From positions 3,323-67,322 of IMG/VR virus record IMGVR_UViG_3300027276_000193: a DNA stretch of 64,000 nt; one strand, 5' to 3'. Source of the DNA: a virus (taxonomy: Duplodnaviria; Caudoviricetes). The notes beneath the pieces are model-generated. The model did no database searches. It was not told where the DNA came from and saw only the letters and a program-made list of their open reading frames with translations. The position numbers were made by a program, and so were the translations under genes. Below are positions 12,046 through 51,941 of this stretch, piece by piece (position 1 is the stretch's first letter; every line of letters starts with the position of its first letter).

Positions 12046-12087
12046 CAAGCCCGCAGTCCGGCTCGTAAGAACCAGACTGCGGGCTTG
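12046..12087. terminator. Bidirectional hairpin terminator between convergent acrVA2-like and hsp20 genes
   Basis: CAAGCCCGCAGTC...GACTGCGGGCTTG stem with A-tract on the left. Confidence 0.75.
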
Positions 12088-12097
12088 CAGTGTGTGT

Positions 12098-12550: not shown

Positions 12551-12681
12551 AATGCAAACCTCCAATTCATTGGCCTTGTACGCTTGGTTCATTGCCACGC
12601 TTGCAGGGTCGCATTAATTCCATCTTGTTCGGGCTCTCTTTCGATCCCCCTTCCTTGATGGTGTCTATATTATATATCTAA

Positions 12682-12698
12682 GGTCAAAGAAAGTCAAT
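12682..12698. promoter_or_regulatory. CtsR-like box overlapping the -35 of the hsp20 promoter
   Basis: GGTCAAA-GAA-AGTCAAT matches CtsR consensus RGTCAAA-NAN-RGTCAAA with 1 mismatch; TTGACT on minus strand at 12697-12692. Confidence 0.7.
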
Positions 12699-12826
12699 AA
12701 TTTTGAAAATTTTTTTCTACATATTTTTCTCGTTTTCCGTGCATTTCACGTAGTATTGACTCTGTTTTGAATTATTTCTGTGGATTTCATTGAAATACTT
12801 CGTTTTTCTTGCAAAGCACATCAACG

Positions 12827-12861
12827 AAAAAAGGGGAACCCACTAGAAAAGCAGGTTCCCC
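12827..12861 (-). terminator. Terminator after endolysin
   Basis: GGGGAACC...GGTTCCCC stem with T-tract on minus strand. Confidence 0.7.
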
Positions 12862-12867
12862 AAGAAT

Positions 12868-13971: not shown

Positions 13972-14004
13972 TTTCGTCACCTCCAAATGGGAAAAGGGCG
14001 GCGG

Positions 14005-14469
14005 TTATTCGCCGTCGCCCTGGTCGTCTTTGCCTTCCTTCTCATCCCGGTTGTGCAGCTGCTCCAGAACGGCCTTCAGCTTGTCCGGGATGGGCAGGCC
14101 GATGTAGGCCGCGTTCTCCAGCAGGCTGAGTCCCTCGTTGGAGAGGTAGAAGGCAATCACCGCACCACGAAGAGCACTGCCGGAGCCGATCACATGCAGA
14201 TCGACGATGTTCGCAATACCTACCATGAACAGGATGAGAACCTTCTTGCAAACACCCTTGAAACCCACGGCGCTGGACAGTTTCTTGTCCACGATGGCGC
14301 ACATGACGCCCGTGATGTAGTCCAGCGTCATAAAAATGAGCAGGGCGATCATCAGGCCGTCGATGCCTCCAAGGAAGTAACCCAGCCATCCGCCGATGGC
14401 CGTGATGGCGATCTGGATCTTTGCCCAGATCAGGTCGATAGAAAAGTTCCGCATTGTCGTTTCCTCCAA
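14005..14469 (-). CDS. Phage holin (holin 4-1 / toxin-secretion type)
   Basis: LDYITGVMCAI...LSSAVGFKGVCKKV...NEGLSLLENAAYIGLPIP. Confidence 0.92.
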   Translation of the reverse strand: MEETTMRNFSIDLIWAKIQIAITAIGGWLGYFLGGIDGLMIALLIFMTLDYITGVMCAIVDKKLSSAVGFKGVCKKVLILFMVGIANIVDLHVIGSGSALRGAVIAFYLSNEGLSLLENAAYIGLPIPDKLKAVLEQLHNRDEKEGKDDQGDGE

Positions 14470-14540
14470 TCATTTTGATATAGAAAAACCCGCCTCCGTG
14501 TTGGAAGCGGGCTGATCCCGGGAATGATATCTGTTCATAG

Positions 14541-16799
14541 TCATACACCGAAAGCAAACCAGTCAACGTTACGGCTTGTGCTGAAGTTGCCGCCGACTAC
14601 GATATAGCATCCGCTGGTCGTTTTGCTGTGCACCTTGATCGCACCGTTGTCGCCCGACCAGTTGCCCGACGTCGTAGAATAGGTCACCAGAACCACGGGA
14701 GTTGAGGTGAAGCCCGCAGACGAGTAATCCACATAGGTAGCGCTGGAACCGTTGATGGACGTGGAGCCATAGGCGTACTTGAACGGCAGTCTCGCCGCCG
14801 GAAGTGTGCCTGTGGTGATATTTGCCGCGTTGTTTGTGCCAAGGTTGCTCCGGGCGTTTGCAGCGGTGGTCGCACCCGTGCCGCCATTGGCCACGGGCAC
14901 ACCGGAAACCATGCCGGAATGGAACACACGGTAGTTGCCCCAGGTGCCCGCGTCACAGACCCGCAGGAGTACAGCCCAGTCTAAGCTGTTCTGATAAGCC
15001 TTCGTGCGGACTTCCAGCATTCGGCGATTGTTGCCCGTGCTGTCCTCCCAGGCAGCGAAGGAAGAAGCTCCTGCGTAGCTGCCCTCAAACACCGTCCGGT
15101 TGGTAGTATCATTGTAGGTCGGAAGCAGAAGCAGCGAGGGATAAAGATAGCCGGAAATGTTCAGGTTGCCTGTCATCGTGTCTCCGGTTTTCTTCACACC
15201 ACCCAGGTTGGCAATGGCGCTCGCCGCCGATGTGGCTCCCGTGCCGCCGTAGGCAACCGCCAACGCGGAACTCAGTTTCAGCGGCCAGCCACAGTCGATG
15301 TACCCTGAGGTCTCTGCCACCTTCCCGATGCCGATCCCGGTGCCGTCCGCCATGAAGTCCAGGATGACTCCCTTAGTGCCGATGCCGACGGCCTGCTCCA
15401 CGTAATAGAAATAGTCGGTCAGCCGCACCTTCAGGTCATAGCTGTACAGCGCGTCAAAGGTCTGGGAAAGGAGCTTGTTGGTGGCACTCAGCGTATAGCT
15501 GGTGATGGCCATCTGCTCTGCCGTCGTCCAGGCTGTGGCGCTCTTCAGCTTGTAATACACCACGCAGGAAAGACCGTTCTTGTTATTCAGAGCGGTGACC
15601 TTTCCTGCAAAGGAATACCGGGCCTTCGTGCCGTCCAGCTGAGCGGCAGACCCATCACTGTTGCAGCGTTCTGCGGAGAAGGCTGTGATGGAAGGCGGCG
15701 AATAGTCCAGCACATTGAAGGTGGTCGTGTATGTTGCTGTCCGGCCACGGCTGTCCGTAACCGTGACCGTCATCGTCATATCTCCAGCTACGGACAGCTT
15801 CTTGGTTGCTGTAAAGGATGCCGCCGTATAGTTCACGCCATCCAGCGATGTACGGTAGGAAGAGATCGTGCTTCCGTACACACCAGCCGCTGTGATGGCG
15901 ACGGATAATGTGCTCAGCCCCTTGACGAAGGCGGCGATCCTGGACACGACCGTTGTATTGGTATCCTCGACTGTGACCGAAGAAATGCTCGGCATAACCG
16001 TACTCGGCACATTCAGCGTCACCGTGCACGTTCGGGTACCTGTCAGCGTCCCGCCGTTATAGCTTTGACAGGTGATCGTACAGATGCCGCTGGTAGCGCT
16101 TGGGATCTGACTGGCCAGTGACAAAGGCGGCGTCCAGCTGACCGACGCGCCGACATTGCTGGCGATGGTGCCGCTAGTGCTGCCGAAACTGTAGAGCAAA
16201 GTGTGCGTTGTCGCGGTGCTCTGCCGGTTGGTGTAGATCGTCACGGCGCTGCCCAGGTTCACGGAGGAGGAAGACACAGTCGGCTGGGACACAGCTTCCT
16301 CATAGGTGATTGTGATGATCACACTTGACCACTGCAGGTAGTTGTAGGAATACCCCTGGGACGACGCGCTGGGATACGGGTTATAAATCGTAAAGCTGTT
16401 GTTGCCTGCAGCAATGTATGCCGCCATGGCATTGAACAGCGACCCGGTGATGTAATAGCTGGTGTAGTTCCCGTAGAAGGAACCGTCGAAGGTGCCAAGC
16501 TCATCTCCGGTGTACTGCCAACCCGCAATGCCGGATGCGATGCCATTCTGGTAGTTGGCTTTCCGCATGAAAACGGTCTTTGTGCTTCCCGCGCCATAGC
16601 CTGCTTTTGAAGCGTCAATATCCAGCCAGATACTGGTGATCACCTTGTTGGCAAGGTTCATGCCGACGAAGCTGATAATACCTACGTTGTTGTAGCTGGA
16701 ATCATAAAACTCCTGACTGGCATATCCGTTCTTGGCATTGGAGGATGAATTGTAGTGCCTCGTGCACAGGGACGCGCTGTAGGATACTGTGGATGCCAT
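14541..16799 (-). CDS. Minor tail/fibre protein (DUF859-like)
   Basis: Ser/Thr-rich Ig-like repeats (SWTPPLSLASQIPSATSG...), VAYGGTGAT/VANGGTGAT fibre motifs; position between Tal and holin. Confidence 0.75.
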   Translation of the reverse strand: MASTVSYSASLCTRHYNSSSNAKNGYASQEFYDSSYNNVGIISFVGMNLANKVITSIWLDIDASKAGYGAGSTKTVFMRKANYQNGIASGIAGWQYTGDELGTFDGSFYGNYTSYYITGSLFNAMAAYIAAGNNSFTIYNPYPSASSQGYSYNYLQWSSVIITITYEEAVSQPTVSSSSVNLGSAVTIYTNRQSTATTHTLLYSFGSTSGTIASNVGASVSWTPPLSLASQIPSATSGICTITCQSYNGGTLTGTRTCTVTLNVPSTVMPSISSVTVEDTNTTVVSRIAAFVKGLSTLSVAITAAGVYGSTISSYRTSLDGVNYTAASFTATKKLSVAGDMTMTVTVTDSRGRTATYTTTFNVLDYSPPSITAFSAERCNSDGSAAQLDGTKARYSFAGKVTALNNKNGLSCVVYYKLKSATAWTTAEQMAITSYTLSATNKLLSQTFDALYSYDLKVRLTDYFYYVEQAVGIGTKGVILDFMADGTGIGIGKVAETSGYIDCGWPLKLSSALAVAYGGTGATSAASAIANLGGVKKTGDTMTGNLNISGYLYPSLLLLPTYNDTTNRTVFEGSYAGASSFAAWEDSTGNNRRMLEVRTKAYQNSLDWAVLLRVCDAGTWGNYRVFHSGMVSGVPVANGGTGATTAANARSNLGTNNAANITTGTLPAARLPFKYAYGSTSINGSSATYVDYSSAGFTSTPVVLVTYSTTSGNWSGDNGAIKVHSKTTSGCYIVVGGNFSTSRNVDWFAFGV

Positions 16800-35061: not shown

Positions 35062-35151
35062 TTAATGTCGATGCGTCCAGCCGATGGCAATCATCAGTAG
35101 GATGCTGAGTAAAATGAGCGCGGCAATGACGATCAGGCTGGGAACAATCAA
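35062..35151 (-). CDS. Putative 29-aa single-TM peptide between portal and protease
   Basis: TTG start overlapping portal stop; LIVPSLIVIAALILLSILLMIAIGWTHRH; below ORF-track cutoff. Confidence 0.35.
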   Translation of the reverse strand: MIVPSLIVIAALILLSILLMIAIGWTHRH

Positions 35152-36404
35152 GGCTGCATCCGCTCCCTTCTTTCAGGCTGAGTCTGCCTGTTGGCATCGT
35201 CGGTCTGCTGCTTCATGGCAGTGGTAATGGGGATCATGTTGCCGTTGACGAGATAGGCGTCGCCGCCCTGATCCGCCGGGATGGGATTCTGGTTTTCCAG
35301 CGCCCGGATATCGTTAGCGGACATCCAACCGTTCTGGCGGGCAATAGCATAGCCTTCCATCCGGCTCTTGTAGTCGCCGCGCATCAGGCCGTCGATGTTG
35401 AACTGCACATAAAAGCGCCCCTTCTCCTGATCGGTGAAAAGGGCGCGGTTCATGGCCTGTTCGATGCGGACGAGCCAGGGGCGGATGGTGTGGACGGCGA
35501 AGTCGATGCTCATGTGCTCGATATTCGAGAATGTGGCATGCTCCAGATCGCCGACCAGGTGGGGCGGTACCCGGAAGATCCGGCAGATTTCATCCACCTG
35601 GAACTTTCGGGTTTCCAGGAACTGCGCTTCATTGTTGGGCACGGCCATGGGCTCAAACTTCATGCCTTCTTCCAGAATGGCCACCCGATTCGCGTTGGAT
35701 GATCCGCCGTAGGCTGCGTTCCAGCTTTCTCGCAATGCCTTTGGGTTTTTCACGGTGTTCGGGTGCGTCAGAATGCCAGAAGGGCGAGCGCCGTTGGAGA
35801 AAAACTTGCTGCCGTATTCTTCGGAAGCGATGCCCAGGCCGATAGCATTCTTCTCCAGCGCGATGGGGCTGTAGCCCATAACACCATCAAAGCCGAGTCC
35901 GGGGATATGAAGCACATCCTCAGGAGACAGCACCACCGTCTGGCCGGTATTGGTCATATAGGTGTAGGTCAGGATGCCGTTCTTATCCCGGTCTACAGTC
36001 ATCTTGTCCGGTAGCAGAGGGTATAGACCTGTGATTTTATTCCGGCCTGTGCGGATGATCTGGCAGTAGCTGTTGCCCCACAGGAGCAGGTGCGCCAGCA
36101 TGACCTCTCGCAGCACAAAGGACGTCATTTCGCTGTTCGGCTCGTCATGGATCAAGCGATACAGCGGATGCTCCGTCGCCTTGCGGTTGCCGTCTTCCTT
36201 GGCTTCATATACACCAAGCGGCAGGCTGGCGACCGTTTCAGATATTACCCGGACGCAGGCGTACACCGTGGAAAGCTGGATTGCTGTCTGGGCATTAACT
36301 GCCTTGCCGGAACCGCTGGTGCCGAAGTAGAAGGTAGGAGCAGCGCTGACGCTATCCTGGGGCTTGTCCCGCGCACGGAATAGAGCGGTGAAGGGGTTTT
36401 TCAT
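35148..36404 (-). CDS. Portal protein (HK97 family)
   Basis: VYACVRVISETVASLPL...LLLWGNSY...VLHIPGLGFDGVMGYSPI...FRVPPHLVG. Confidence 0.95.
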   Translation of the reverse strand: MKNPFTALFRARDKPQDSVSAAPTFYFGTSGSGKAVNAQTAIQLSTVYACVRVISETVASLPLGVYEAKEDGNRKATEHPLYRLIHDEPNSEMTSFVLREVMLAHLLLWGNSYCQIIRTGRNKITGLYPLLPDKMTVDRDKNGILTYTYMTNTGQTVVLSPEDVLHIPGLGFDGVMGYSPIALEKNAIGLGIASEEYGSKFFSNGARPSGILTHPNTVKNPKALRESWNAAYGGSSNANRVAILEEGMKFEPMAVPNNEAQFLETRKFQVDEICRIFRVPPHLVGDLEHATFSNIEHMSIDFAVHTIRPWLVRIEQAMNRALFTDQEKGRFYVQFNIDGLMRGDYKSRMEGYAIARQNGWMSANDIRALENQNPIPADQGGDAYLVNGNMIPITTAMKQQTDDANRQTQPERRERMQP

Positions 36405-38873: not shown

Positions 38874-40424
38874 TCAGATAATCAAAAGCCCACGAGTGTC
38901 GTAGACGGATTCGCCGCCCTGGTTCTTCATGGCTCTGTCCAGCGCCATGACCAGCGCGACCGCGCCGTCCACCTTCTCCGTGGATTTTTCCTTGTCGATT
39001 TTCAGGTTCCCGGCGGGATCAGTGCGCACGAAGGCATTGTCCATGTTCCACCGGAGCACCGGGTGCCCACCGTGATTCAGCTTCCGCTCCAGCACGATGC
39101 GCATCAGTTCTTTGGTCGGCGGCGACATATCCCGGAAGCCCTGTCCGAAGGGCACCATGTTGAAACCGTCGTCTTCCAGGGTCTGCACCATCATGGTGGC
39201 ATTCCATCGGTCATAGGCGATTTCCCGGATGTTGAACCGTTCGCCCAGCTTCGTGATGAACTGCTCTATAAAGCCGTAATGCACCACGTTGCCCTCGGTC
39301 GTATGAATGAAGCCCTGCCGCTCCCATTTGTCGTACATCACATGATCGCGCCGGACGCGCAGCTGCATGGTGTCCTCGGGGAGCCAGAAGTACGGCAGTA
39401 CGATGTACTGCTCTTCATCATCCCTTGGCGGGAACACCAGCACCATGGCGGTCAAGTCGGAAGTGGAAGAAAGGTCGAGCCCGGCATAGCAGGCGCGGCC
39501 TTCCAGTTCATACTCATTGACAGCGCCGCCGCATTCATCCCATTTGTCCATGGGCATCCAGCGGATACTCTGCTTGACCCACTGGTTCAGGCGCAGCTGA
39601 CGGAACATGTTCTCATCAGCGGGCGTCTCCTGGGCCTTGCGGAATGCGTCCCGTACCTTGTCGATGGAGATCGTCTGATCCAGGGATGGATTGGCCTTGT
39701 ACCAGTTTCGCTCATCCGTCCAGTCGGCGTCATCCGGCAGGCCGTAGAGCACAGGGTAGAAGCGAGGATCATCCTTCCTGCCTTCGATGATATCCAGGGC
39801 TTTTTGATGAACCTCCCAGCAGATGCTGTTCCGGTCGGTGCCAGCCGTTGTCAGCAGGAACCAAAGCGGCTGCTTCCGGGCGTCGCCGCTGCCCTGGGTC
39901 ATGACATCATACAGAGCGCGGGTGGGCTGGGTGTGAAGCTCGTCGAAGATGCAGGCGCTGACGTTCAGGCCGTGCTTGGTGGCCACTTCACTGGACAGAA
40001 CCTGATAGATACTTCCGGTCGGCTGGTAGACCATTCTTTTTGTAGAAGGAATGATCTTGATCCGCTTGCTGAGCGCCGGTGACTGCTTCACCATATCGAC
40101 GGCCACATCGAAAACGATAGCCGCCTGCTGACGGTCGCTGGCGCAGGAGTAAACCTCCGCCCGCCACTCATCATCATTGCAGAGCATGTTCAGGGCAATG
40201 GCAGCGCCGAGCTCACTCTTTCCGTTCTTCTTCGGGATCTCAATGTAGGCCGTATTGTACTGCCGCATGGATGGATCATCGTCCCGGACAGTGCCGAACA
40301 CATCCCGGATGATCTTTTCCTGCCAGGGAAGCAGCTTGAACGGCTCTCCGTGGAATTCTCCCTTGGTATGCTTCAGGCACTCAATGAACTGCGTCACCCG
40401 GCGTGCTTTCGCTTCACTGAACAT
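38874..40424 (-). CDS. terL: Terminase large subunit
   Basis: EIPKKNGKS Walker A, CIFDELH Walker B, AGLDLSSTSDLTA nuclease, KVDGAVA. Confidence 0.96.
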   Translation of the reverse strand: MFSEAKARRVTQFIECLKHTKGEFHGEPFKLLPWQEKIIRDVFGTVRDDDPSMRQYNTAYIEIPKKNGKSELGAAIALNMLCNDDEWRAEVYSCASDRQQAAIVFDVAVDMVKQSPALSKRIKIIPSTKRMVYQPTGSIYQVLSSEVATKHGLNVSACIFDELHTQPTRALYDVMTQGSGDARKQPLWFLLTTAGTDRNSICWEVHQKALDIIEGRKDDPRFYPVLYGLPDDADWTDERNWYKANPSLDQTISIDKVRDAFRKAQETPADENMFRQLRLNQWVKQSIRWMPMDKWDECGGAVNEYELEGRACYAGLDLSSTSDLTAMVLVFPPRDDEEQYIVLPYFWLPEDTMQLRVRRDHVMYDKWERQGFIHTTEGNVVHYGFIEQFITKLGERFNIREIAYDRWNATMMVQTLEDDGFNMVPFGQGFRDMSPPTKELMRIVLERKLNHGGHPVLRWNMDNAFVRTDPAGNLKIDKEKSTEKVDGAVALVMALDRAMKNQGGESVYDTRGLLII

Positions 40425-40908
40425 CCTGCCAGCCTCCCTTCAGGACGGATTCCATCGGATCGTCGCTGGCTGCGCTGTCGCCGCTGTTGGCATAGAGCCG
40501 TGCCCGGCTGGCAGGCGTCAGGCCGAACTCCGAACAGAAGGACTGCATGATTTTCAGGTTCTGCATGGCGATGCTGACCTGCGGCACCTGCTGTACATAG
40601 CCGCTGGGCGTTTTGAAAATGGTGCCGTGCTGAGACAGGAATTCTTCAGCTTCACGCCACCGGGCGTAGGCCTGGCAGTATCCGGCGAAGGCTTCCATGT
40701 CATGTTCGGTGAGAACACCCATGGCAATCAGGGATGGAGCCAGACGCTTCCATTCCTTCTTTGCTTCCGGCATCAGCCAGGCAGGACACTTCACGTTGTC
40801 CTGGGGCGGCGTCGGCTCATCCTTGTTCAGCGGTCGTCTGCCCTTGCCACGGTCACCCTCCAGTTCTTTCAGGGCCGTGGGCAGGGGCTTTCTTCCTCTG
40901 GTGGCCAT
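40414..40908 (-). CDS. terS: Terminase small subunit (P27 family)
   Basis: GRKPLPTALKELEG...EAKKEWKRL...FCSEFGLTPASR. Confidence 0.93.
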   Translation of the reverse strand: MATRGRKPLPTALKELEGDRGKGRRPLNKDEPTPPQDNVKCPAWLMPEAKKEWKRLAPSLIAMGVLTEHDMEAFAGYCQAYARWREAEEFLSQHGTIFKTPSGYVQQVPQVSIAMQNLKIMQSFCSEFGLTPASRARLYANSGDSAASDDPMESVLKGGWQDVQ

Positions 40909-40955: not shown

Positions 40956-42200
40956 TTATGTGGGCTGTGTGACATCACTGTAGGAAATAGTGTGCCCGTC
41001 CCGCAGCACCATGATCTCCTGATCCGGGTATTCCAGGTGGAAACGCTCCACTATTACTGTCGCGTATTTCGGATCAAGCTCCATCGTCCGACATATCCGG
41101 TCGGTCTGTTCGCAGGCGATGAGGGTGGAGCCGCTGCCGCCGAACAGATCCATAACCACGGCGTTCGGTGCGCTGCTGTTCTTAATCGGATACGCCAGCA
41201 GCGGAATCGGCTTCATGGTCGGATGGTCAGCGCTCTTCTTGGGCTTGTCGAAATTCCAGATGGTGGACTGCTTCCGGTCGGCGAACCACTTGTGCTTCCC
41301 GTTGGGGAGCCAGCCGTAGAGCACGGGCTCGTGTTGCCACTGGTATGGACTGCGGCCCAGCACCAGGCTGTTCTTCACCCAGATGCATACCCCGGAAATA
41401 TGAAAGCCGGACTCTTTGAAAGCCCGGCGAAAGTTCAGTCCTTCGGTATCCGCATGGAAGATGTAGGCGCTGCCGCCCTCGGCCATATGCGCCGCCATGT
41501 TCTGGAAAGCGGCCAGCAGGAAGGCGAAGAACTGCTCGTCTGCCATGCTGTCGTTCTGGATCTTCTTTCCGTCAGCGGACTCATACGCCACGTTATAGGG
41601 TGGATCGGTCACGACCAGGTTGGCCCTGATGCCGTCCATGAGCGCGTCCACTGCATCCGGCGATGTGCTGTCCCCGCACATCATGCGGTGCCTGCCCAGC
41701 GTCCAGATGTCACCGGGCTGTACATATACGTTGACTGTTTCCGGATCAATCTCACAGTCATCGTCATGCACATCCTTGTCATGCACCTTGGAGAAAAGAT
41801 CATCCACCTCGGCAGCGTCAAAGCCTGTCGCGCCGAGATCATATCCGGCGTTCTGCAGATCCTGCAGCAGGTCAGCCAGGGCCGTGGGCTCCCAGTCGCC
41901 AGTGGCTTTGTTGAGCGCGATGTTCAGCGCCTTTTCATCCGAAGGGTTCTCGATGTGCACCACAACGCAGTCCACCTCGGTCGCGCCTTCAGCCTTCAGC
42001 ACCTTGAAACGCTGGTGACCGCCTACGATGTTGCCCGTCACCTCATTCCAGACGATGGGATCGACATACCCGAAGTCGTGCAGGCTGCGCTTGATCTTCT
42101 CATACGCGGGATCGCCCGGCTTCAGGTCTTTCCTGGGGTTGTATTTCGCAGGCTTCAGCCGGTCAATGGGCATGGTCTGCATGTTCAGATTCGTATTCAC
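40956..42200 (-). CDS. ParB-like domain + N6/N4 DNA methyltransferase
   Basis: GTG 42200 after AGGAGG; LKPAKYNPR ParB motif, TDPPYN, HPTMKP, DLFGGSGST. Confidence 0.9.
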   Translation of the reverse strand: MNTNLNMQTMPIDRLKPAKYNPRKDLKPGDPAYEKIKRSLHDFGYVDPIVWNEVTGNIVGGHQRFKVLKAEGATEVDCVVVHIENPSDEKALNIALNKATGDWEPTALADLLQDLQNAGYDLGATGFDAAEVDDLFSKVHDKDVHDDDCEIDPETVNVYVQPGDIWTLGRHRMMCGDSTSPDAVDALMDGIRANLVVTDPPYNVAYESADGKKIQNDSMADEQFFAFLLAAFQNMAAHMAEGGSAYIFHADTEGLNFRRAFKESGFHISGVCIWVKNSLVLGRSPYQWQHEPVLYGWLPNGKHKWFADRKQSTIWNFDKPKKSADHPTMKPIPLLAYPIKNSSAPNAVVMDLFGGSGSTLIACEQTDRICRTMELDPKYATVIVERFHLEYPDQEIMVLRDGHTISYSDVTQPT

Positions 42201-42257
42201 GGTTCCTCCTTCTGCCGTCCTTCGGGGCGGCTTTTTTGATGTCCGGGCGGGCCGATA

Positions 42258-42347
42258 CCCCCACCCCCGAATTTGTCGGAAATTCACGCGTGAGGGGGGC
42301 GCGGTCTCCGCCAGGCACACCCAGGGATCTGACCGCCCCCTCCCGGG
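42258..42347 (-). other. Candidate cos/packaging initiation site
   Basis: Minus strand GGGAGGGGGCGGTCAGATCCCT...GAGACCGCGCCCCCCTCACGCGTGAATTT resembles, from memory, the G-rich element usually found after the HNH gene in HK97-type Firmicutes phages; directly upstream of the MTase-terS-terL operon. Confidence 0.5.
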
Positions 42348-42390
42348 CACACCTCGGCCCGGCGGCTGGGCACACCGACCTGCCCGGCGA

Positions 42391-42499
42391 CTTCGCCAGA
42401 GCAAAGTGGAGAAGTGTGCCGCCCGCCGGACTTCTTCACGGCAAAGCGAAGAAGCGCCGCCCGCCCGGACTTCACCAGAGCAAAGTCGGAAAGTGTGCC
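42391..42499 (+). repeat. Three imperfect direct repeats, ~40-bp period
   Basis: CTTCGCCAGAGCAAAGTGGAGAAGTGTGCC (42391), CTTCTTCACGGCAAAGCGAAGAAGCGCCGC (42431), CTTCACCAGAGCAAAGTCGGAAAGTGTGCC (42470). Confidence 0.7.
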
Positions 42500-42641
42500 C
42501 GGCGGCGGTTCCGGGCGGCGGGTCGGTGTGCCCGCCCGGGCGGCGAAAAACCGCCCGCCCGGCGAAAAAAAACCGGGTTTTTTTCCGGCCCCTACGCGCA
42601 TGTATAAGGAAGCGCGGCCTCCTTTTTCGCAAAAAAAACCG

Positions 42642-42752: not shown

Positions 42753-43646
42753 ATGAAAACCCAGACCTTCGGCATCGAGATCGAAATGAACCACATCACC
42801 CGCCAGCTGGCCGCGCAGGTGGTCGCGGAAACCCTCGGCGAAGGAGCGACCTTCCGGCACACGGGCGGTTCCTACGACGCTTGGGAGGTCACCGCGCTGG
42901 ACGGGCGGCGGTGGAAGCTGGTCAGCGACGCGAGCATCGCCGGGCCGCGCGACCAAGGCACAGAGTTCGTCAGCCCGATTTGCCGCTGGGAAGACATCGA
43001 AACGGTGCAGGCCTGCGTCCGGGCCCTCCGGGCGGCTGGGGCACACGCCGACCCCTCCTGCGGCATCCACGTACACGTCGGCCTTGGGGAGCACACCCCC
43101 AAAACCCTGCGGAACTTGGTCAACTTGGTCAACGCCAAGGAAGACCTCCTGACCCAAGCCCTCCAAATCAGCCCGGAGCGCCGGAGCCGCTGGTGCCAGC
43201 CCGTCGACCCACACTTCCTCGCGACCCTGAACCGCCGGAAGCCCGCGACCTCCGAGGATTTCGCCCGGATTTGGTACGACGACATGTGCTGGGAGTACCA
43301 CGCACACCAGCACTACGACCCCTCCCGGTACCACCTGCTGAACCTGCACAGCGTTTTCCAGAAGGGCACCATCGAGTTCCGGGCCTTCAACAGCACACTT
43401 CACGCCGGAGAGGTCAAGGCCTACATCCAGCTTTGCCTCGCGATTTCCCACCAAGCCCTGACGGTGGCTTCCGCAAGCCCGGCCCGCCCGGTCACCGACA
43501 ACCCGGCGTACACCTTCCGGTGCTGGCTCCTCCGGCTGGGCATGAACGGCGAGGAGTTTAAGACCGCCCGCACACACCTCCTGAAGCACATGCCCGGCAA
43601 CGCGGCTTGGAGGAACGGTGCTGAGACCACCCGCCGGGCCTCCTGA
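42753..43646 (+). CDS. Putative amidoligase (Amidoligase_2, COOH-NH2 ligase type)
   Basis: TFGIEIEM, WKLVSDASI, TEFVSP, SCGIHVHV, RYHLLNL, TIEFRAFN; ATG 42753 after AAGGAG. Confidence 0.9.
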   Translation: MKTQTFGIEIEMNHITRQLAAQVVAETLGEGATFRHTGGSYDAWEVTALDGRRWKLVSDASIAGPRDQGTEFVSPICRWEDIETVQACVRALRAAGAHADPSCGIHVHVGLGEHTPKTLRNLVNLVNAKEDLLTQALQISPERRSRWCQPVDPHFLATLNRRKPATSEDFARIWYDDMCWEYHAHQHYDPSRYHLLNLHSVFQKGTIEFRAFNSTLHAGEVKAYIQLCLAISHQALTVASASPARPVTDNPAYTFRCWLLRLGMNGEEFKTARTHLLKHMPGNAAWRNGAETTRRAS

Positions 43647-43807
43647 ACCCGGCGGCGCACACCCGGGAGGATACAGCTTTGAAACCGACCCGCCTGATGA
43701 TGGCCCGGCGGCACCGGGCCGAAACCGGGCACAGGAACCGCCCGGTCGCGGGAAGCCACACCAGCTTCCAAATCAAGCAGGGCACACAGCCCAAGGAGGT
43801 ACACCCC

Positions 43808-44008
43808 ATGATGAACCGGAATCAGGCCATCGCCTACGGCAAGCACATCGGCGTCCGCTGGCACATCTACAACAGCAACGGCTGTCTGGTCGGCGGCACC
43901 AAGACCCTCGAGCAGGCACAGGCCATGAAGCGCCGCTTCGAAATCGAGGAGCGGAGCAACCCTTGGACACACGGCACCACCCGCTTCGAAATCCGCGAGG
44001 CCAAGTAA
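43808..44008 (+). CDS. Small hypothetical protein (66 aa)
   Basis: ATG after AAGGAGG and motif leader. Confidence 0.7.
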   Translation: MMNRNQAIAYGKHIGVRWHIYNSNGCLVGGTKTLEQAQAMKRRFEIEERSNPWTHGTTRFEIREAK

Positions 44009-44067
44009 GCCCGCGCCAGCCACAGCTTTCAAATCGACAGGGCCGAGAGCCCGGAAAGGAACACACC

Positions 44068-44295
44068 ATGTACGAGAACGATTACGAGAACGAGGAACAG
44101 GTCACAGAAGACACCATGCAGGACGGACTCATGGAGCTCATTTCGGAAGCTGCCGAGGACAGCTTTGGAATCGGCTGGGAGGAAGCCGAGGTACGCACAT
44201 TCGAACAGGCCGGAATCATGACCTACAACAAAGGGCTGGTGATCAGCCTGCCGGACGGCACAGAGTTCCAGCTGACCATCGTCCAGAGCCGCTGA
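44068..44295 (+). CDS. Small acidic hypothetical protein (75 aa)
   Basis: ATG after GAAAGGA and motif leader; TFEQAGIMTYNKGLVISLPDGTEFQLTIV. Confidence 0.75.
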   Translation: MYENDYENEEQVTEDTMQDGLMELISEAAEDSFGIGWEEAEVRTFEQAGIMTYNKGLVISLPDGTEFQLTIVQSR

Positions 44296-44310
44296 AGCAC
44301 AGCGGCCCCG

Positions 44311-44812
44311 GCTGAGGGCTCTTGAATCGGGAGCCTTCACCCGGAGCCACAGGCTTCCAAATCAAAAGGAGGTACATCCCATGAAAAGCACACCCGAAAC
44401 CCGGAAGGCAATCAGCGCCATCGTCGACACTGCCCGCATCAAGGACACCGGCTACCAAATCTACATCAACGAGTACGACGACGATTTCTACATCAGCATT
44501 CGACAGCCCAGAGACACCGACAAGGTGGCCTACCCGGAAATCTTCTGCAAGGATAACTGGTTCGGTGAGAAGGCTCTCGGCTTTGAAATCGCCACCACCG
44601 GATACGGTGACCATAGCATCGCACAGGCACAGAGAGCGGTTGCAGGCTTGCAAATCGCCATCGACTTGGTGGAGGCGCTCCTCACCACCGCAGAGCTTTA
44701 CGGGCTGAAGATTCGCCGCTGACACACAGCACCGCCGGGCAGGCGGTTCCGGTTGAGGGCTCCTGAATCAAGGAGCCTTCACCTGGAGCCACATGCTCTG
44801 AAATCGAAAGGA
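44311..44812 (+). repeat. Two ~60-bp direct repeats (hairpin + motif + RBS) flanking the 113-aa ORF
   Basis: GAGGGCTCTTGAATCGGGAGCCTTCACCCGGAGCCACAGGCTTCCAAATC (~44314) vs GAGGGCTCCTGAATCAAGGAGCCTTCACCTGGAGCCACATGCTCTGAAATC (~44755). Confidence 0.8.
44381..44722 (+). CDS. Hypothetical protein (113 aa)
   Basis: ATG after AAAAGGAGG and motif leader. Confidence 0.75.
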   Translation: MKSTPETRKAISAIVDTARIKDTGYQIYINEYDDDFYISIRQPRDTDKVAYPEIFCKDNWFGEKALGFEIATTGYGDHSIAQAQRAVAGLQIAIDLVEALLTTAELYGLKIRR

Positions 44813-44822
44813 GGCACACCCA

Positions 44823-45050
44823 ATGACCCATGCGGAGATGATTCGGGAATACACCCGGAGCTACAAGAACATGCTGAGTACCAGCGCTGAAAAGCGTCTG
44901 GCGCAGCTGGAGGCTGAGGCGGCAAAGGAAGGCCTGCGCTTTCAAATGATCAACGAACGCCAGTGGATGCTCCCACACTTCATAGGCGACCCGCATTTCG
45001 AACTGATCGCTTTGGAATCGGAAGGAGGCACAGAGAATGCGATTCATTGA
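44823..45050 (+). CDS. Hypothetical protein (75 aa)
   Basis: ATG after AAAGGAGG and motif leader. Confidence 0.7.
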   Translation: MTHAEMIREYTRSYKNMLSTSAEKRLAQLEAEAAKEGLRFQMINERQWMLPHFIGDPHFELIALESEGGTENAIH

Positions 45051-45270
45051 CCTGAATGATGATAAGGTTTACACCCTGCAAGACCTGCACCACGATTGGG
45101 CACAGTTCCGGCAGGAAAACCCGGAGAACCACGCGGAGAGCTTCCGAATTGAGTTCTTCGAAATCCTGATGGCGACCATCAACGGACGGAACGATCTGGA
45201 AATCCTCGGCATGACACACCGGGAAATCAGCAGCTTGACCCTTCGCCTGCGGGCACAGCTTTTGAATTAA
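45037..45270 (+). CDS. Hypothetical protein (77 aa)
   Basis: ATG after GGAGG, overlaps upstream ORF. Confidence 0.7.
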   Translation: MRFIDLNDDKVYTLQDLHHDWAQFRQENPENHAESFRIEFFEILMATINGRNDLEILGMTHREISSLTLRLRAQLLN

Positions 45271-45295
45271 GCTGGGCTGTAGGCACACAAACCCG

Positions 45296-45326
45296 TTGAC
45301 TTTCCCACCGGACAGAGTGAGTAATG
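45296..45326 (+). promoter_or_regulatory. Shared promoter motif
   Basis: TTGACTTT-cccaccggac-AGAGTGAGTAATG. Confidence 0.75.
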
Positions 45327-45370
45327 GACCGCCCGGCAGGGCTTTCAAATCAAGAAGGAGGCATTGCATC

Positions 45371-45556
45371 ATGACCACTTATCAGGTATTCTGCAAAGGA
45401 ACAGCCCGCAGGTGGCTTCCGTACAGCGGAGAGTTCTGGACACTTCAGGAGGCACAGAAGTGCATGGAGTACGTGATTGGCCTTGGAAACTACAGCATCA
45501 CCGGCGCGCCGATCAGCTACAAGATTGTCAAGCACACCCGGCAGGATGTCGCCTGA
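45371..45556 (+). CDS. Small hypothetical protein (61 aa)
   Basis: ATG after AAGGAGG and motif leader. Confidence 0.65.
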   Translation: MTTYQVFCKGTARRWLPYSGEFWTLQEAQKCMEYVIGLGNYSITGAPISYKIVKHTRQDVA

Positions 45557-45590
45557 CACAGCTTTCAAATCGACAAGGAGGATAACCGCA

Positions 45591-46034
45591 ATGAAATACA
45601 TCGCTTACGGAAGCAACATGGTTCAGGAACAGATGGCAGTCCGCTGCCCGGATGCCAGGCTCATCGGCACCGGGTACATCGCCGGAGCCCGGCTGGAGTT
45701 TTACCTCCACGCCACCGTCAAAAAGACAGGCGACCAGCGCAACCGGGTGCCCGTAGCCGTCTGGGAAATCAACGACCGCGATGAACGGAGCCTTGACCGC
45801 TACGAAGGATACCCCAGCTACTACATCAAGGAGCGCTGGCCCGTGCACATGTCGGACGGCTCTCAAATCGAAGGCATGATTTACATCATGAAGATGATTC
45901 GACAGTCGCCGCCCCATAGCGCCTACTACAAGGGCATCGAAGATGCCTACCGGAAGCTCGGCCTGCGCTCTCAAATCAACACCATCCTGAAGCCCGCGCT
46001 GGAGAGGAGCCTGCAGCGGGGCACGCACTGGTAA
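45591..46034 (+). CDS. Gamma-glutamylcyclotransferase (GGCT/AIG2-like) family protein
   Basis: MKYIAYGSNM...QMAVRCPDA...VPVAVWEI...LDRYEGYPSYY. Confidence 0.9.
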   Translation: MKYIAYGSNMVQEQMAVRCPDARLIGTGYIAGARLEFYLHATVKKTGDQRNRVPVAVWEINDRDERSLDRYEGYPSYYIKERWPVHMSDGSQIEGMIYIMKMIRQSPPHSAYYKGIEDAYRKLGLRSQINTILKPALERSLQRGTHW

Positions 46035-46287
46035 GACAACACCTGGAAAATACCTGCCGCAGGGACACACGAATACAGCCGCTTTCCAATTCGGAAGGCA
46101 GCTTTCATCGTCTCTGGACGGCTTCCAAATCCGCGCCGTGTTTGGCCCACGTTCGCGCCGTTTCGCACGGTCGGGTTCTTCCTCGGCCCTCGCCCCAAAA
46201 CCCGCGACAGGGGCAAACGTAGCGGCTACGCGGGCAAAAGGAAAAGCGGCCAGCGCTTGGCTGAACCGCTTTCAAATCTGCAGGGGT

Positions 46288-46809
46288 TTACTTCGCTTTG
46301 GTCAGGTGGTCTGCGGCAACCTCCACCGCGTCATTGTTCTCCCGGAACCGGATCACGATCTCACCGTCGGCCACCGTGTACAGCGCCTGGAAAGGTTCCT
46401 CCCAGATCTGTGTCAGGCCGGGACATTCCTTCATCGCCGTGATCCGCAGGGCTTTGAAATCTGTGCCCGCCTTCCACTGCTGGAAGATCCGGATCAGGCG
46501 CGGCACATGCTCGGCCTTGATGGTCTTCAGCGCTTCTTCGCCGGGCACCGCTTTGAAATCCGCTGTGGCTTCACCCTCTCTGAACTGTGCCCAACACTCC
46601 AGCGGGAGCGGGTTCCGCATGAAGTCCAGCATCGCTTCCGCTGTGCCGCAGTCGTCGCACACGTAGATGCCGTCGGCATGTCGGCTCAGCGCGTTGGTGT
46701 ACAGATCAGGCTTCATAGTGTCCCGTCCGCAACGCGGGCAGGGCATCTTTTCTCCGGCTTCCTGCCGGGCTTTCAAATCCAGCAGGGCTTCCTGAATGTT
46801 CTTACTCAT
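46288..46809 (-). CDS. Zinc-finger hypothetical protein (as often found N-terminal to DUF4314)
   Basis: CPRCGRDTMKPDLYTNALSRHADGIYVCDDCGTAEA. Confidence 0.7.
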   Translation of the reverse strand: MSKNIQEALLDLKARQEAGEKMPCPRCGRDTMKPDLYTNALSRHADGIYVCDDCGTAEAMLDFMRNPLPLECWAQFREGEATADFKAVPGEEALKTIKAEHVPRLIRIFQQWKAGTDFKALRITAMKECPGLTQIWEEPFQALYTVADGEIVIRFRENNDAVEVAADHLTKAK

Positions 46810-47707
46810 TGTCCGTCGCCTCCTCAACCATGACCTCCAGCACCGCCGCTTCCTGCTCGGCCAGCCTGCGCTCCCGCCGGATGGCGGTGTACTTTTCCTT
46901 GTGGGCCTGCATCTTGTCGCCGCTTCCGAAGGCACAGTAGCCTTTCAGGTGGCCCAGCAGGATTTTCCGCTCGGCTTTGAAATCCGCGCCGTGGTATCCC
47001 AGCCGCTGGAGCCAGACGTGCGCGAGGTACTTCTCGTTCTGGTCGTCCGGTTCCACCCGGTCCGGGAATACCCGTATGGCCTTCATCGCCGCGTCGTAAA
47101 TCCGATTCAGCAGGTTGGCGTAGGTTGTCCAGCGCTCCGGCTGTGTCTCGTCAAAGGGAAACGTCATGCTGACCTTTCCGTCCCGGAAATCAAATCCGGT
47201 CAGTTCGGCCACCGCTCTGGAATCGTCCAGCAGGCTGGTGAGATCCTCCAGGGTTTCCGGTGTGCTTTCCTGCAGCCTGTCGATCAGGATGTCAGGAATG
47301 TTCAGGCAGTCGCTGTCGGTCATGCGGTTGATCAGGGTCTGGCGGCTGTGCAGCATGAAGATCAGGTTCTTCAGCTGTGCCACCGCAGCGTTCCGCGCCG
47401 GAATCGAAATGTCCATCTGGGTGATGGGCTCCGCTTTTGAATCGGCATGCACTTCCTCGTCCGGCTGTGCTTCGGTGACGGCTTCCTGATCGGCGGCGGG
47501 TTCGTCGTTGACGTATCCGTTCCTCCGCAGGAAATCCTGCAGGGCGGTAAAATCCTCGCCGATGATGTTTCCGTCCCGGTCGACGGTGAAGTCGCCGATC
47601 TGGTAGCCGTAGGTCGGTGCCCGCAGGTAGGTAGACGTTGTGCCGAGCTCCTCGGCGATGGCTTTGACCAGTGCTTTCCGGTCGGTCGTGTTGGTGGTAA
47701 TGGTCAT
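46802..47707 (-). CDS. Phage 'virulence-related' family protein of unknown function
   Basis: RKALVKAIAEELG...YLRAPTYGYQIGDFTVDRDG N-terminus; NEKYLAHVWLQRLGYHGADFKAERKILL C-terminus. Confidence 0.75.
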   Translation of the reverse strand: MTITTNTTDRKALVKAIAEELGTTSTYLRAPTYGYQIGDFTVDRDGNIIGEDFTALQDFLRRNGYVNDEPAADQEAVTEAQPDEEVHADSKAEPITQMDISIPARNAAVAQLKNLIFMLHSRQTLINRMTDSDCLNIPDILIDRLQESTPETLEDLTSLLDDSRAVAELTGFDFRDGKVSMTFPFDETQPERWTTYANLLNRIYDAAMKAIRVFPDRVEPDDQNEKYLAHVWLQRLGYHGADFKAERKILLGHLKGYCAFGSGDKMQAHKEKYTAIRRERRLAEQEAAVLEVMVEEATDNE

Positions 47708-50110: not shown

Positions 50111-51941
50111 TAATACTTCCCCAATTCCCTGTACTATAGGATCGGCCTAAAACTCCCCGTTTTCGAACATTTCTGGCCACAATCCAATAAAATCGCTCCG
50201 GATCTTTCTGGATTTGCTTTCAAACGGGTCCTCTCCAGCCAGGAAGGGAGCCGTTTTCATTGCAAAAAAGTTCTAAAAATCCCTTGCATATAGTACTGTT
50301 ATGTGATATACTGTACTATATATTGAGGGGGGGTGTTTTAGGTGGCAGTACCAGAATCCATCCGGAAGGTTCCTCGTCCTGTCAACACCATCGTCCAGGA
50401 TAATGGAAAGGACGGTCCCAACCGCTATCCTGTCCGTGAGCGCATCAGCGTCACGTATGTTTCCGGTGGCAATTCACAGCCCAAGAACGGAAAAGTCATC
50501 GGCCATATTGTGGATGGCATGTACGTTCCGCTCGGCGTTGCCGCCGTCAAAGCAGAGCCAGATATGTTGTCCTACGGGGCCAGTGCATTTGTCAGATCCG
50601 TTTCCAGAGATCTGTTTACGGAACTGCTTGGCGTTTATACACCCAAGGATGCCTATACCATCATGGCCATTGCCTCCCTTCGGGTCATCAAGCCGGAAGT
50701 ATCTGCAAAGCGTCTTGCGACACAATACCAGCAAACGTTCGTCAGCAAGTTCTATCCGGGAATCGGCCTCTCCGAGAACACAGTCAGCGCTTTCCTTCAG
50801 GGAATCGGCCGTGACGGAAACCGCCGGTTGGCGTTTTACCATAAGCGAGCGGCGTCTGTCGCTGCGGACCACCATGTGGCAATTGACGGAATGCTCAAGC
50901 AGGATAACAGCATTGTCAACGATCTGTCAGCTTTCTCCTACAAGGCAAGAACCAAGGGATGCCGGGAGGTATCAATTCTCTATGCATATGACATTGAGGA
51001 GATGGAACCGATCTGTGCGGAGGTATTCCCTGGGAACAGCATTGATGCGACATCCTACAAATCCTTTATTCGGGATAATGATATCCGGAAAGGAATCATT
51101 GTTGCAGACAAGGGTTTTCCGCCATCTCAGATCAGCGACGAACTTGCGGAACGTCCCGAGTTGCATTTCCTTACCCCTATCAAGAGAAACGACTCCCGAA
51201 TCACGAATAACAACATGCTGGCCTTCGAAGGCGTTCTGTCCGGTATTGGAGACCATGTCCTGTGCAAGAAGAAAGAGATCAAGGGCGGTCGATTCCTCTA
51301 TGCATACCGATCTGCGCATAAGTCAGCAATGGAAGAAGCATCTTTTCTTGCCCGGCGCGAGGACAAGAACGACTACAATCCGGCAATCTACGAGAAGAAA
51401 CGAGAAGTATTCGGCGTCATCGTCTTCGAGTCGGATCAGGACCTCGATCCCAGGACCGCTTACCTCTGTTATGACGATCGGTGGCTGCTGGAACTGGTCT
51501 TCAATCGGTACAAGAACGATGAATGCCTGGACAGAACCAATGTGCAGGGTGACTTTTCCGTCATTGGAAGTGAGTTCATTAACTTCATTTCCACGGTCAT
51601 TACCTGCCGCCTAATCCGGAAGGCCCGGGAAGCCGAGCTGCTCAAACTCATGTCTTACGGGGATCTCATGGATGATCTGAATTCTGCATGGCGGAAGGTG
51701 GATGCGCCGGAAGAACCGGCGACCAATGACAACGGCTGGGTCCACACTAACGTTGGTGTTTTCGAAGAACTGGAAGCACTGGGACTCTCCAAACCGATTC
51801 CGAAACCCGAACCGAAAAAGCGTGGTCGGAAAAAGAAGGAATCTGTAGTCAACAAACCGAAAAGACCCAGAGGAAGGCCAAGAAAGAACCCTGTAAACGC
51901 TATCGACAAGCTGCTATAGTACAGCGATTTGGGATTTCGTT
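50111..51941 (+). mobile_element. Insertion sequence (IS1634/IS4-like)
   Basis: Inverted repeats CCCAATTCCCTGTACTATAG (50120-50139) and CTATAGTACAGCGATTTGGG (51914-51933), 18/20 match; candidate target duplication ATTAAC at 50105-50110 and 51942-51947. Confidence 0.75.
50342..51919 (+). CDS. DDE transposase
   Basis: VAIDG, VADKGF, YDDRWLLELVFNRYKN; AT-hook-like KRPRGRPRK tail. Confidence 0.88.
   Translation: MAVPESIRKVPRPVNTIVQDNGKDGPNRYPVRERISVTYVSGGNSQPKNGKVIGHIVDGMYVPLGVAAVKAEPDMLSYGASAFVRSVSRDLFTELLGVYTPKDAYTIMAIASLRVIKPEVSAKRLATQYQQTFVSKFYPGIGLSENTVSAFLQGIGRDGNRRLAFYHKRAASVAADHHVAIDGMLKQDNSIVNDLSAFSYKARTKGCREVSILYAYDIEEMEPICAEVFPGNSIDATSYKSFIRDNDIRKGIIVADKGFPPSQISDELAERPELHFLTPIKRNDSRITNNNMLAFEGVLSGIGDHVLCKKKEIKGGRFLYAYRSAHKSAMEEASFLARREDKNDYNPAIYEKKREVFGVIVFESDQDLDPRTAYLCYDDRWLLELVFNRYKNDECLDRTNVQGDFSVIGSEFINFISTVITCRLIRKAREAELLKLMSYGDLMDDLNSAWRKVDAPEEPATNDNGWVHTNVGVFEELEALGLSKPIPKPEPKKRGRKKKESVVNKPKRPRGRPRKNPVNAIDKLL

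Follow-up and report, generated by a model that had tools for sequence, protein, structure and literature searches.

A strand-polar array of an 11-bp word occupies ~3.9 kb of a phage genome in which an accessory operon that begins with an amidoligase gene runs against nearly all the other genes. We found that the word is selected at the nucleotide level, that the array is conserved among related phages with turnover of its individual sites, and that it accompanies the inverted arrangement of the amidoligase module. The DNA in which the array was noticed, referred to here as the window, is a 64-kb stretch (64,000 nucleotides; positions 3,323 to 67,322) of the 67-kb IMG/VR virus record IMGVR_UViG_3300027276_000193, the closest GenBank relative of which is a Christensenellales phage of Candidatus (Ca.) Heliusvirales. 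An initial annotation, made from the letters of the window alone, had proposed that the array is a directional protein-loading or protection signal beside a cos-like site. Coordinates are those of the window, and the features are collected in Table 1.

The word and the selection that maintains it

Exact matches to GCTYBSAAATC number 18 in the window, all of them on the + strand and within 43764-46984, where 0.74 would be expected per window for both strands together; none of 100 shuffles reached 18. The 18 positions listed in the initial annotation are all exact in coordinate and strand. Further copies, at 43676, 44162, 44318, 44451, 44759, 44938, 45009, 45155, 47214 and 47433, came from one-mismatch and relaxed searches. 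(Three of the looser variants described initially, at 44318, 44938 and 47433, are present on the + strand as given; the fourth, placed at 44758, starts at 44759.) The relaxed pattern GCTYYNRAATC occurs 26 times on the + strand of the 64 kb and not once on the - strand, with 23 of the 26 copies in the interval 43.6-47.6 kb. The array is thus confined to 43.7-47.6 kb (~3.9 kb), in keeping with the initial impression that the word clusters nowhere else in the window.

The consensus, (R)GCTYYSAAATC, is invariant at G1, C2, T3 and A7-C11. It can be written as a pseudo-dyad, GCTTT-S-AAATC, the centre of which takes C or G and rarely A or T. The word is nevertheless asymmetric, with an invariant C at position 2 and an invariant T at position 10, and is not a palindrome of the parS kind. 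Copies follow one another at a median of ~165 bp, with few gaps of <40 bp and more evenly than random; no convincing helical phasing or nucleosome-like period emerged from the spacing analysis.

Approximately half of all copies are coding. In particular, 10 copies lie in + strand coding sequence, 2-3 in the spacer between convergent genes, and 7-9 antisense in two - strand genes. When synonymous codons were shuffled within genes with the proteins held fixed, a mean of 2.07 coding copies (maximum 6) was obtained, compared to the 10 observed, and 0 of 2000 shuffles reached 10. Moreover, the tetrapeptide D[FL][KERG]A, which the word encodes when read from the other strand, is found four times in the 474 amino acids of the two - strand array genes and once in the 21 other - strand open reading frames (ORFs) that we took as genes. 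All four occurrences in the array genes use the rare lysine codon AAA (27% of lysine codons), and CAA (10% usage) is the codon of both glutamines in the tested peptides. Taken together, the shuffles, the tetrapeptide excess and the rare codons indicate that the word is selected at the nucleotide level and shapes the proteins that it traverses; selection targets the nucleotide sequence rather than the proteins, even against codon preference. The peptides reported initially (RFEI, GFEI, GLQI and SQI on the + strand; DLKA once and DFKA three times on the - strand) were read correctly, and the codon-matched null suggested alongside them came out in favour of the array. Note that the initial annotation went further, arguing for selection on DNA and not on protein or mRNA. 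The codon shuffles uphold nucleotide-level selection. The exclusion of mRNA is not established, because rightward read-through of weak convergent terminators would put all copies on one RNA and because, in a complete relative (G002), the array stops at the intrinsic terminator of the operon.

Arrays that keep this relative strand are carried by >30 related phages and prophages, Heliusvirales-like and from Christensenellales or other Clostridia (the GenBank phage, seven IMG/VR contigs, prophages in metagenome-assembled genomes (MAGs), and contigs from a two-gap pattern scan), and every relative with enough flank has one. The MAGs that contain array-bearing prophages are labelled Christensenellales, Clostridia, Clostridiales or Bacillota. 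Each relative carries 12-23 copies per 2.5-3.9 kb, amounting to ~300 copies on the array strand versus 3 on the opposite strand. Thus the conservation in homologous regions, and the fixed orientation described initially, both hold among the relatives, where polarity is strict at roughly 300:3.

Within the block formed by the gamma-glutamyl cyclotransferase (GGCT) gene and the genes for a 173-aa and a 301-aa protein, many sites hold their position in 11-13 of the 14 sequences compared. Sites that turn over keep their orientation: one site is shifted by 9 nt in L001, some gains are lineage-specific, and losses are replaced nearby. In relatives in which DFKA has become DSKA, the DNA still matches the relaxed word. 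The word itself has drifted in some lineages, to GCTNNNRAATC in L103, to nCTYYNRAATC in L110 and to GNTYYSAAATCAAG in L154 and L155; the core that is invariant across lineages is RAATC following a pyrimidine-rich half. A search for an alternative motif around the distant 301-aa homologues of L009 and L022 returned only words attributable to coding bias, and a search of a plasmid collection gave no match.

The inverted operon and the host genome

To place the array in its genomic context, we compared the arrangement of 80 loci from an amidoligase search (L146-L225), in 60 of which the module is co-linear with the packaging genes and in 6 of which it is divergent from them (inverted). All 60 co-linear relatives have 0-2 copies of the word, whereas each of the 6 inverted-module relatives has 11-21, all on the operon strand and none opposite. 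(L154 and L155, which belong to neither group here, carry the variant word.) The usual order at co-linear loci is a ParB-methylase gene, a 301-aa-like gene, the amidoligase gene and the GGCT gene, followed by TerS and/or TerL, and the distance from amidoligase to GGCT is 15-987 nt. At the 6 inverted loci, 0.8-1.9 kb of small genes separate amidoligase from GGCT, and the module diverges from ParB-methylase, TerS and TerL. The split between the two arrangements argues that the array goes with the inverted, cassette-bearing operon rather than with cos, terminase or methylase in themselves. The initial link between the array and a cos/terminase function is thereby lost: 60 of 60 co-linear relatives have homologous ParB-methylase, TerS and TerL without an array, and 6 of 6 inverted ones have it. 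The array tracks gene arrangement, and does not track replication genes, the zinc-ribbon gene that encodes the 173-aa protein, or terminase. The orders of genes suggest that the packaging-gene operon originally included the module, which then became inverted in this clade.

One co-linear relative (L164:2000-17000) contains 7 one-strand copies of TGACGGTAATAT; these resemble extended -10 promoters and are not a counterpart of the array. L034 carries the array and appears to be without amidoligase.

The complete relative G002 (61.7 kb; 21 copies) shares with the window the structural and packaging genes, the ParB-methylase, the amidoligase (37-40% identical), one small gene and a weak SNF2 match; this SNF2-type helicase, at 27% identity, is the sole replication gene that the two have in common. 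The primase-helicase, PolA, GGCT and the 173-aa and 301-aa proteins are all without a homologue in G002. Approximately 18 of its 21 copies lie in the co-oriented operon stretch and 2-3 beyond it, and one copy sits inside the terminal hairpin and T-run (the intrinsic terminator) of the operon. This distribution argues that the reach of the array goes with that of the rightward transcription unit.

The set of small ORFan genes in the operon differs between relatives in a mosaic fashion, and contigs from public runs join cassettes exactly at the leaders (for example 44365 to 45043), joints that indicate apparent cassette shuffling. These contigs, from four metatranscriptome runs, extend over the structural genes as well and reveal neither starts nor ends, so that they are uninformative about transcripts. 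In this respect the stereotyped leaders seem to behave like shuffling junctions of the PeSL type. In the PeSL cassettes of T4-type phages, a repeated unit at ORFan borders in a hyperplastic region combines a sigma-70 promoter with a terminator hairpin (PMC2839356). The two systems have in common stereotyped leaders at ORFan borders, variants that join at leaders and mosaic gene sets (PMC2839356). They differ in that only two leaders here have a promoter (P1 and P2) and only some have hairpins, and in that the conserved part here is an 11-bp word beside the ribosome-binding site (RBS) that also occurs in coding sequence on both coding strands.

To determine whether the word is a signal of the host chromosome, we examined a 2.7-Mb Christensenellales host genome that carries a 95%-identical prophage. 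Its 45 copies comprise 18 in this prophage, 8 in a second prophage and 19 scattered ones. The scattered copies lie on both strands (6 forward, 13 reverse), 16 of the 19 are within long open frames, and clusters occur only in the two prophages; the 8-mer core TYSAAATC has 460 hits, ~2 times the composition expectation. Because the host copies are scattered and mostly in long open frames, neither a host-wide signal of the Chi, FtsK-orienting polar sequence (KOPS) or SpoIIIE recognition sequence (SRS) type nor the site of a host regulon is supported. A Chi-type signal needs over-representation in the host, which 19 scattered copies in 2.7 Mb and a core at ~2 times expectation do not provide; KOPS or SRS need a chromosome-wide skew towards dif or the terminus, and here the host copies are few and on both strands; and for a host transcription-factor site, the 3 of 19 host copies that are intergenic are at chance level.

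The word does resemble Chi, KOPS and SRS in being short, asymmetric and orientation-dependent, and these signals are read by a DNA-moving machine independently of gene direction (Chi is recognised one-sidedly by host RecBCD/AddAB and attenuates degradation). It differs from them in that the sites of RecBCD/AddAB and of FtsK/SpoIIIE are abundant and skewed chromosome-wide, whereas this word, two prophages apart, occurs in the host at the level of chance, a finding with which the Chi/KOPS-like identity offered initially falls. The parS-like identity offered with it fares no better, given a non-palindromic word and a ParB-like neighbour that consists only of ParB_N and a methylase. Likewise, a parS/ParB centromere was rejected on account of relatives that have a 40-57% identical ParB-methylase without an array.

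The second, more divergent prophage of this host genome (L023; G001:C1:1245000-1264999), which is of the same lineage, has an array at 10329-15087 with the same word, layout and polarity, and encodes a 173-aa protein that is 46-48% identical. The same prophage contains a separate 10-mer, GGGGTCCGCC, in 7 one-strand copies.

What the array may do

Our favoured interpretation, which we hold only tentatively, is that the array consists of orientation-dependent sites for a putative asymmetric binder that would act on rightward RNA polymerase. The word would be read in double-stranded DNA, the reader would be a protein, and the process acted upon would be transcription. The sites would be cis-acting within one transcription domain, made up of the inverted amidoligase accessory operon and the stretch that rightward polymerases would meet, and would constitute a polar roadblock or gate in the manner of stoperators. 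The amidoligase gene, which is free of sites, would be transcribed freely from promoter P1; the small cassette genes and GGCT would be gated by the site before each RBS and by the site just past P2; and rightward read-through into the antisense strand of the 173-aa and 301-aa genes would be blocked, while leftward transcription of these two genes would meet the sites in their non-blocking orientation.

Several features give this idea a limited credibility. Polarity is strict, selection is at the nucleotide level, the array accompanies the inverted arrangement, and lost sites are replaced nearby in the same orientation. Placement is between stop and start: all 7 of the + strand genes that follow amidoligase have a copy 17-33 nt 5' of the ATG, between the previous stop codon and the RBS. 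In addition, the copy at 45341..45351 probably sits just downstream of the P2 transcription start, as judged from the predicted promoter; the array matches the transcription unit; the word is a pseudo-dyad; coding positions are tolerated; and spacing is even. A centre that tolerates C or G is, moreover, what duplex recognition commonly shows, and it does not fit base-pairing with a fixed RNA at all.

The closest precedent is provided by the stoperators of Cluster A mycobacteriophages, which are >20 asymmetric 13-mers in short intergenic spaces, the orientation of which follows transcription and is needed for function (PMC9283540). Like the sites of L5 gp71 and of the TipsytheTRex repressor, the array is composed of a short asymmetric word (11 bp here, 13 bp there) in >20 copies that lie mostly in stop-start spaces but also in genes, have an orientation tied to the operon and are kept in related phages (PMC9283540). 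Stoperators differ in being genome-wide and in following transcription in both arms, whereas the array is limited to one 3.9-kb domain and continues antisense into two convergent genes. Furthermore, no cognate repressor was found here, the word is constant across immunity and lysogeny modules, and the hosts are Clostridia rather than Actinobacteria. The rule that orientation follows transcription holds in the operon and in G002 but fails for the 7-9 copies that are antisense to the 173-aa and 301-aa genes.

A number of observations weigh against an action on rightward polymerase. No reader was found: no protein co-occurs with the array across the array-bearing phages, and the proteins common to all of them are packaging and structural proteins (and, in most, the amidoligase), which array-less relatives also have. 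The word is near-constant over phages with unrelated lysogeny and replication modules, unlike the sites of immunity repressors, which as a rule diversify. Its copies keep to ~3.9 kb, unlike stoperators; about one third of the copies are antisense to conserved genes, so that the read-through argument is needed to account for them; ~25 roadblocks look excessive for a 3-kb operon; and copies in hairpin loops or 5' arms would suit reading as RNA. Among candidate readers, the 173-aa zinc-ribbon protein was rejected since it is absent from the complete, array-bearing G002. (A model of this protein, with a predicted local distance difference test (pLDDT) score of 85, had no Foldseek match, and VIA gave only generic matches with Z <=6.1.) The 66-aa and other small proteins were rejected since none is universal among array-bearing phages.

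A possibility that we rather doubt, yet take seriously, is that the signal acts as RNA: GCUYYSAAAUC would be recognised on the rightward transcript, including the antisense RNA that read-through makes of the 173-aa and 301-aa genes. It might then be a processing site upstream of hairpins and RBSs, or the site of a host or phage RNA-binding or antitermination factor, and might perhaps set the stability, translation or read-through of each cassette. The position of the leader copies 5' of each operon ATG after amidoligase fits such a signal, as do L154 and L155, in which most copies make up a leader of word, GC hairpin, RBS and ATG, and L041, where two copies lie between RBS and ATG. Hairpins hold several copies in their loops or 5' arms, and the terminator loops of L034 and G002 are among these; the array of G002 stops at the operon terminator; and the rightward terminator in the window is weak, the array running on into the convergent genes. 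A universal host factor would also explain why the word is so constant across phages. Opposed to this, hairpins are not the general context of the word (112 of 131 copies lack one, and the slight excess of stems around copies is due to homologous leaders), alternation of C and G at the centre is odd for single-strand recognition, and the coding copies, at least 10 in number, would be harmful were they cleavage sites. No convincing complementarity to host 16S rRNA was found, and an Rfam search at the host copies found nothing. The boxA-like words CCTTGAAAAC and CCTTGACAAC in the leader and spacer of host rrn operons differ from the word at invariant positions. Antitermination of the boxA/nut kind was accordingly rejected, both for these mismatches and because at least 20 copies per operon is unlike boxA, of which there are one or two per operon. 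(The host rrn operons, L144/L145, locus 3180-3212, also contain GCTTCTCAAATC and GCTTTCAAGGTC in the 16S-23S spacer, near the 16S processing stem; their resemblance to the word is probably a coincidence.)

It is unlikely, in our estimation, that the word serves the DNA ends, being read on incoming linear DNA in the last-packaged, first-injected arm beside a presumed cos. This keeps the proposal of the initial annotation without the Chi/KOPS identity; the reader might be something that moves along or binds the entering DNA, for example an early or injected protein of the phage or a factor that pulls the DNA, or the sites might halt a host end-processing helicase-nuclease in one direction. In favour of this, the array is always found 1-6 kb inside the GC-rich repeat region between ParB-methylase and amidoligase and points away from it, and the G002 contig opens with the ParB-methylase gene and closes with amidoligase and the array. 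Orientation is independent of local gene direction, and spacing is even. The GC-rich region itself (42210..42640) is a plausible candidate for a cos or terminase-binding site, or else an assembly breakpoint: dozens of related IMG/VR contigs break 60-650 bp from the ParB-methylase start, and the equivalent region of G002 contains long tandem 12-mers (CCCTGGTTCCTT) and repeats that contain GCTGGTGG. Thus, of the initial description of the array as lying beside a cos-like site, the neighbourhood is plausible and the functional link to cos or terminase is not borne out. The position of cos is only presumed, and the contig breaks may come from the repeats. Moreover, the amidoligase gene, which is nearest to the end, is without sites, the array of G002 stops at a transcription terminator, and the classes of host-wide signal are excluded. 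Array-less relatives also have homologous packaging genes, although their end architecture differs as well.

We give little credence to chemistry on one strand, meaning strand-specific nicking (by the HNH or ParB-like nuclease domain encoded beside the terminase genes) or methylation (by the ParB-methylase) at the word. Genome arms that are locally nicked or marked are known from T5-like and tf/LUZ24-like phages, the gene for the ParB_N plus N6/N4 methylase and an HNH gene are always adjacent, and strict strand specificity together with an 11-bp asymmetric word fits the known phage nick-site consensus. Array-less relatives, however, have homologous methylase and HNH genes, and such chemistry would leave unexplained why the word goes with leaders and with the transcription unit.

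Least credible of all are replication-origin iterons or terminase sites of the cosB/pac type, a reading largely refuted by co-occurrence: the direct repeats do share one orientation, with a D5-type primase-helicase gene present and TerS nearby, but they do not cluster, being spread at ~165 bp over 3.9 kb, the word persists in G002 although its replication module is unrelated, 60 co-linear relatives have 57-69% identical TerS/TerL without an array, and the word of L103 has drifted despite a 90% identical TerS. Like lambda cosB/cosQ and pac sites, the array lies near packaging genes and the presumed cos in a fixed relative orientation; unlike them, it is kilobases long, starts ~1 kb past the GC-rich region, with cos between it and terS, and is absent from the 60 terminase-homologous relatives.

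We also consider it possible, though we would not wager on it, that the word is the visible part of an undescribed direction-sensing system that keeps the inverted accessory operon working. The polar track might be read by a conserved host machine or by a phage factor, and it is conceivable, if doubtful, that it separates rightward transcription of the island from leftward early-to-late transcription, replication or packaging. We know of no counterpart to such a system among known operator, Chi/KOPS or terminase sites. No published description of the array was found in the literature searched, the Heliusvirales paper mentions neither amidoligase nor any motif, and literature on amidoligase, GGCT and phage yielded nothing relevant; there is a substantial chance that both reader and purpose are new. 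Strand-locked word arrays that override codons are rare, and those that are understood (Chi, KOPS and stoperators) each revealed a directional DNA-reading machine. Here the carriers are a widespread gut and rumen phage lineage of Clostridia, Heliusvirales-like by closest GenBank relative, and the array marks a fast-evolving block of small ORFans beside the amidoligase/GGCT pair, which is likely an early, host-directed or counter-defence module. The presence of the array in every inverted and no co-linear arrangement amounts to a natural experiment and makes the question directly testable. A reader, if found, would provide an orientation-dependent control element for Clostridia and explain how a wrong-facing operon is tolerated.

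Map of the array and its surroundings

Table 1. Copies of the word, genes and predicted promoters in and around the array (window coordinates)
Feature	Coordinates	Strand	Remarks
Whole strand-polar array	43676..47554	+	18 exact, ~8 relaxed ((R)GCTYYSAAATC / GCTYYNRAATC) and a few degenerate copies
First copy, GCTTTGAAACC	43676..43686	+	1 mismatch; 30 nt past amidoligase stop codon
Leader copy	43764..43774	+	33 nt 5' of ATG 43808; followed by GGGC/GCCC hairpin and RBS
Coding copy (RFEI)	43935..43945	+	66-aa gene
Coding copy (RFEI)	43983..43993	+	66-aa gene
Leader copy	44025..44035	+	32 nt 5' of ATG 44068; followed by hairpin and RBS
Relaxed coding copy, GCTTTGGAATC	44162..44172	+	75-aa gene
Variant copy, GCTCTTGAATC	44318..44328	+	5' arm and loop of intergenic hairpin
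Leader copy	44353..44363	+	17 nt 5' of ATG 44381
Coding copy, GCTACCAAATC (GYQI)	44451..44461	+	113-aa gene
Coding copy (GFEI)	44580..44590	+	113-aa gene
Coding copy (GLQI)	44646..44656	+	113-aa gene
Variant copy, GCTCCTGAATC	44759..44769	+	Within second copy of intergenic hairpin
Leader copy	44795..44805	+	17 nt 5' of ATG 44823
Relaxed leader copy, GCTTTGGAATC	45009..45019	+	17 nt 5' of ATG 45037
Leader copy	45341..45351	+	19 nt 5' of ATG 45371; starts 15 nt past P2 end
Leader copy	45561..45571	+	19 nt 5' of ATG 45591 (GGCT gene)
Coding copy in GGCT (GSQI)	45859..45869	+	Canonical in 11/14 relatives
Coding copy in GGCT (RSQI)	45967..45977	+	Canonical in 11/14 relatives
Convergent intergenic copy	46121..46131	+	
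Copy directly 3' of 173-aa gene stop codon	46268..46278	+	Canonical in 13/14 relatives
Copy antisense to 173-aa gene (DFKA)	46451..46461	+	
Copy antisense to 173-aa gene (DFKA)	46550..46560	+	
Copy antisense to 173-aa gene (DLKA, residues 11-14)	46769..46779	+	Canonical in 13/14 relatives
Copy antisense to 301-aa gene (DFKA)	46974..46984	+	DSKA relatives keep relaxed GCTTTGGAATC
Relaxed copy, GCTCTGGAATC	47214..47224	+	Antisense to 301-aa gene
Relaxed copy, GCTTTTGAATC	47433..47443	+	Antisense to 301-aa gene
Degenerate copy, GCGGTAAAATC	47544..47554	+	GCT...AAATC in 11/14 relatives; right-hand array edge
Portal	35148-36404	-	
TerL	38874-40424	-	After TerS
TerS	40414-40908	-	After ParB-methylase gene
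ParB_N + N6/N4 DNA methyltransferase gene	40956..42197	-	Divergent from operon
GC-rich divergent region	42210..42640		Three 40-bp direct repeats (42389-42508); many related contigs break here
Predicted promoter P1	42639..42672	+	GTTGACTTT...AGAGTGA type; in front of amidoligase gene
Amidoligase gene (Amidoligase_2)	42753..43646	+	First gene of backwards-facing operon; 0 motif copies
Six small ORFan genes (66, 75, 113, 75, 77, 61 aa)	43808..45556	+	Stereotyped leaders
Predicted promoter P2	45293..45327	+	TTGACT, 17 nt, TGAGTAAT; P1-like architecture
GGCT gene (GGACT/AIG2-like)	45591..46034	+	Last gene of operon
173-aa zinc-ribbon protein gene	46288..46809	-	Convergent on operon
301-aa gene	46802..47707	-	Same part of phrog_2443 matched as by amidoligase
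Predicted promoter P3	47738..47772	-	P1-like architecture; upstream of 301-aa and 173-aa genes

The array reaches its right-hand edge within the 301-aa gene, ~150 nt from the 5' end of that gene. Two of the leaders belong to a duplicated 55-nt intergenic module (44330-44384 and 44772-44826, 84% identity) that stands ahead of two different small genes, and a hairpin with a variant word in its loop is located just upstream of each copy of the module. The predicted promoters P1, P2 and P3 share an architecture of GTTGACTTT, a spacer, AGAGTGAGTAATGG and an extended -10; the units that they would drive (amidoligase from P1, the small ORFs and GGCT from P2, the 301-aa and 173-aa genes from P3) are all in or beside the array.

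The 301-aa protein matches positions 159-433 of the phrog_2443 profile ('amidoligase enzyme'), whereas the true amidoligase matches positions 151-422; no Pfam Amidoligase_2 match to the 301-aa protein was obtained. Because the same part of phrog_2443 is matched, the 301-aa protein is probably a divergent, and possibly inactive, paralogue of the amidoligase. Between the 301-aa gene and the replication genes (50342-51919) lie a DDE transposase gene, representing an insertion sequence (IS) element, and low-GC cargo that includes genes for SH3 and peptidoglycan-binding lytic enzymes; IS element and cargo account for the 301-aa gene having its own promoter here, where in L001 it follows upstream genes.

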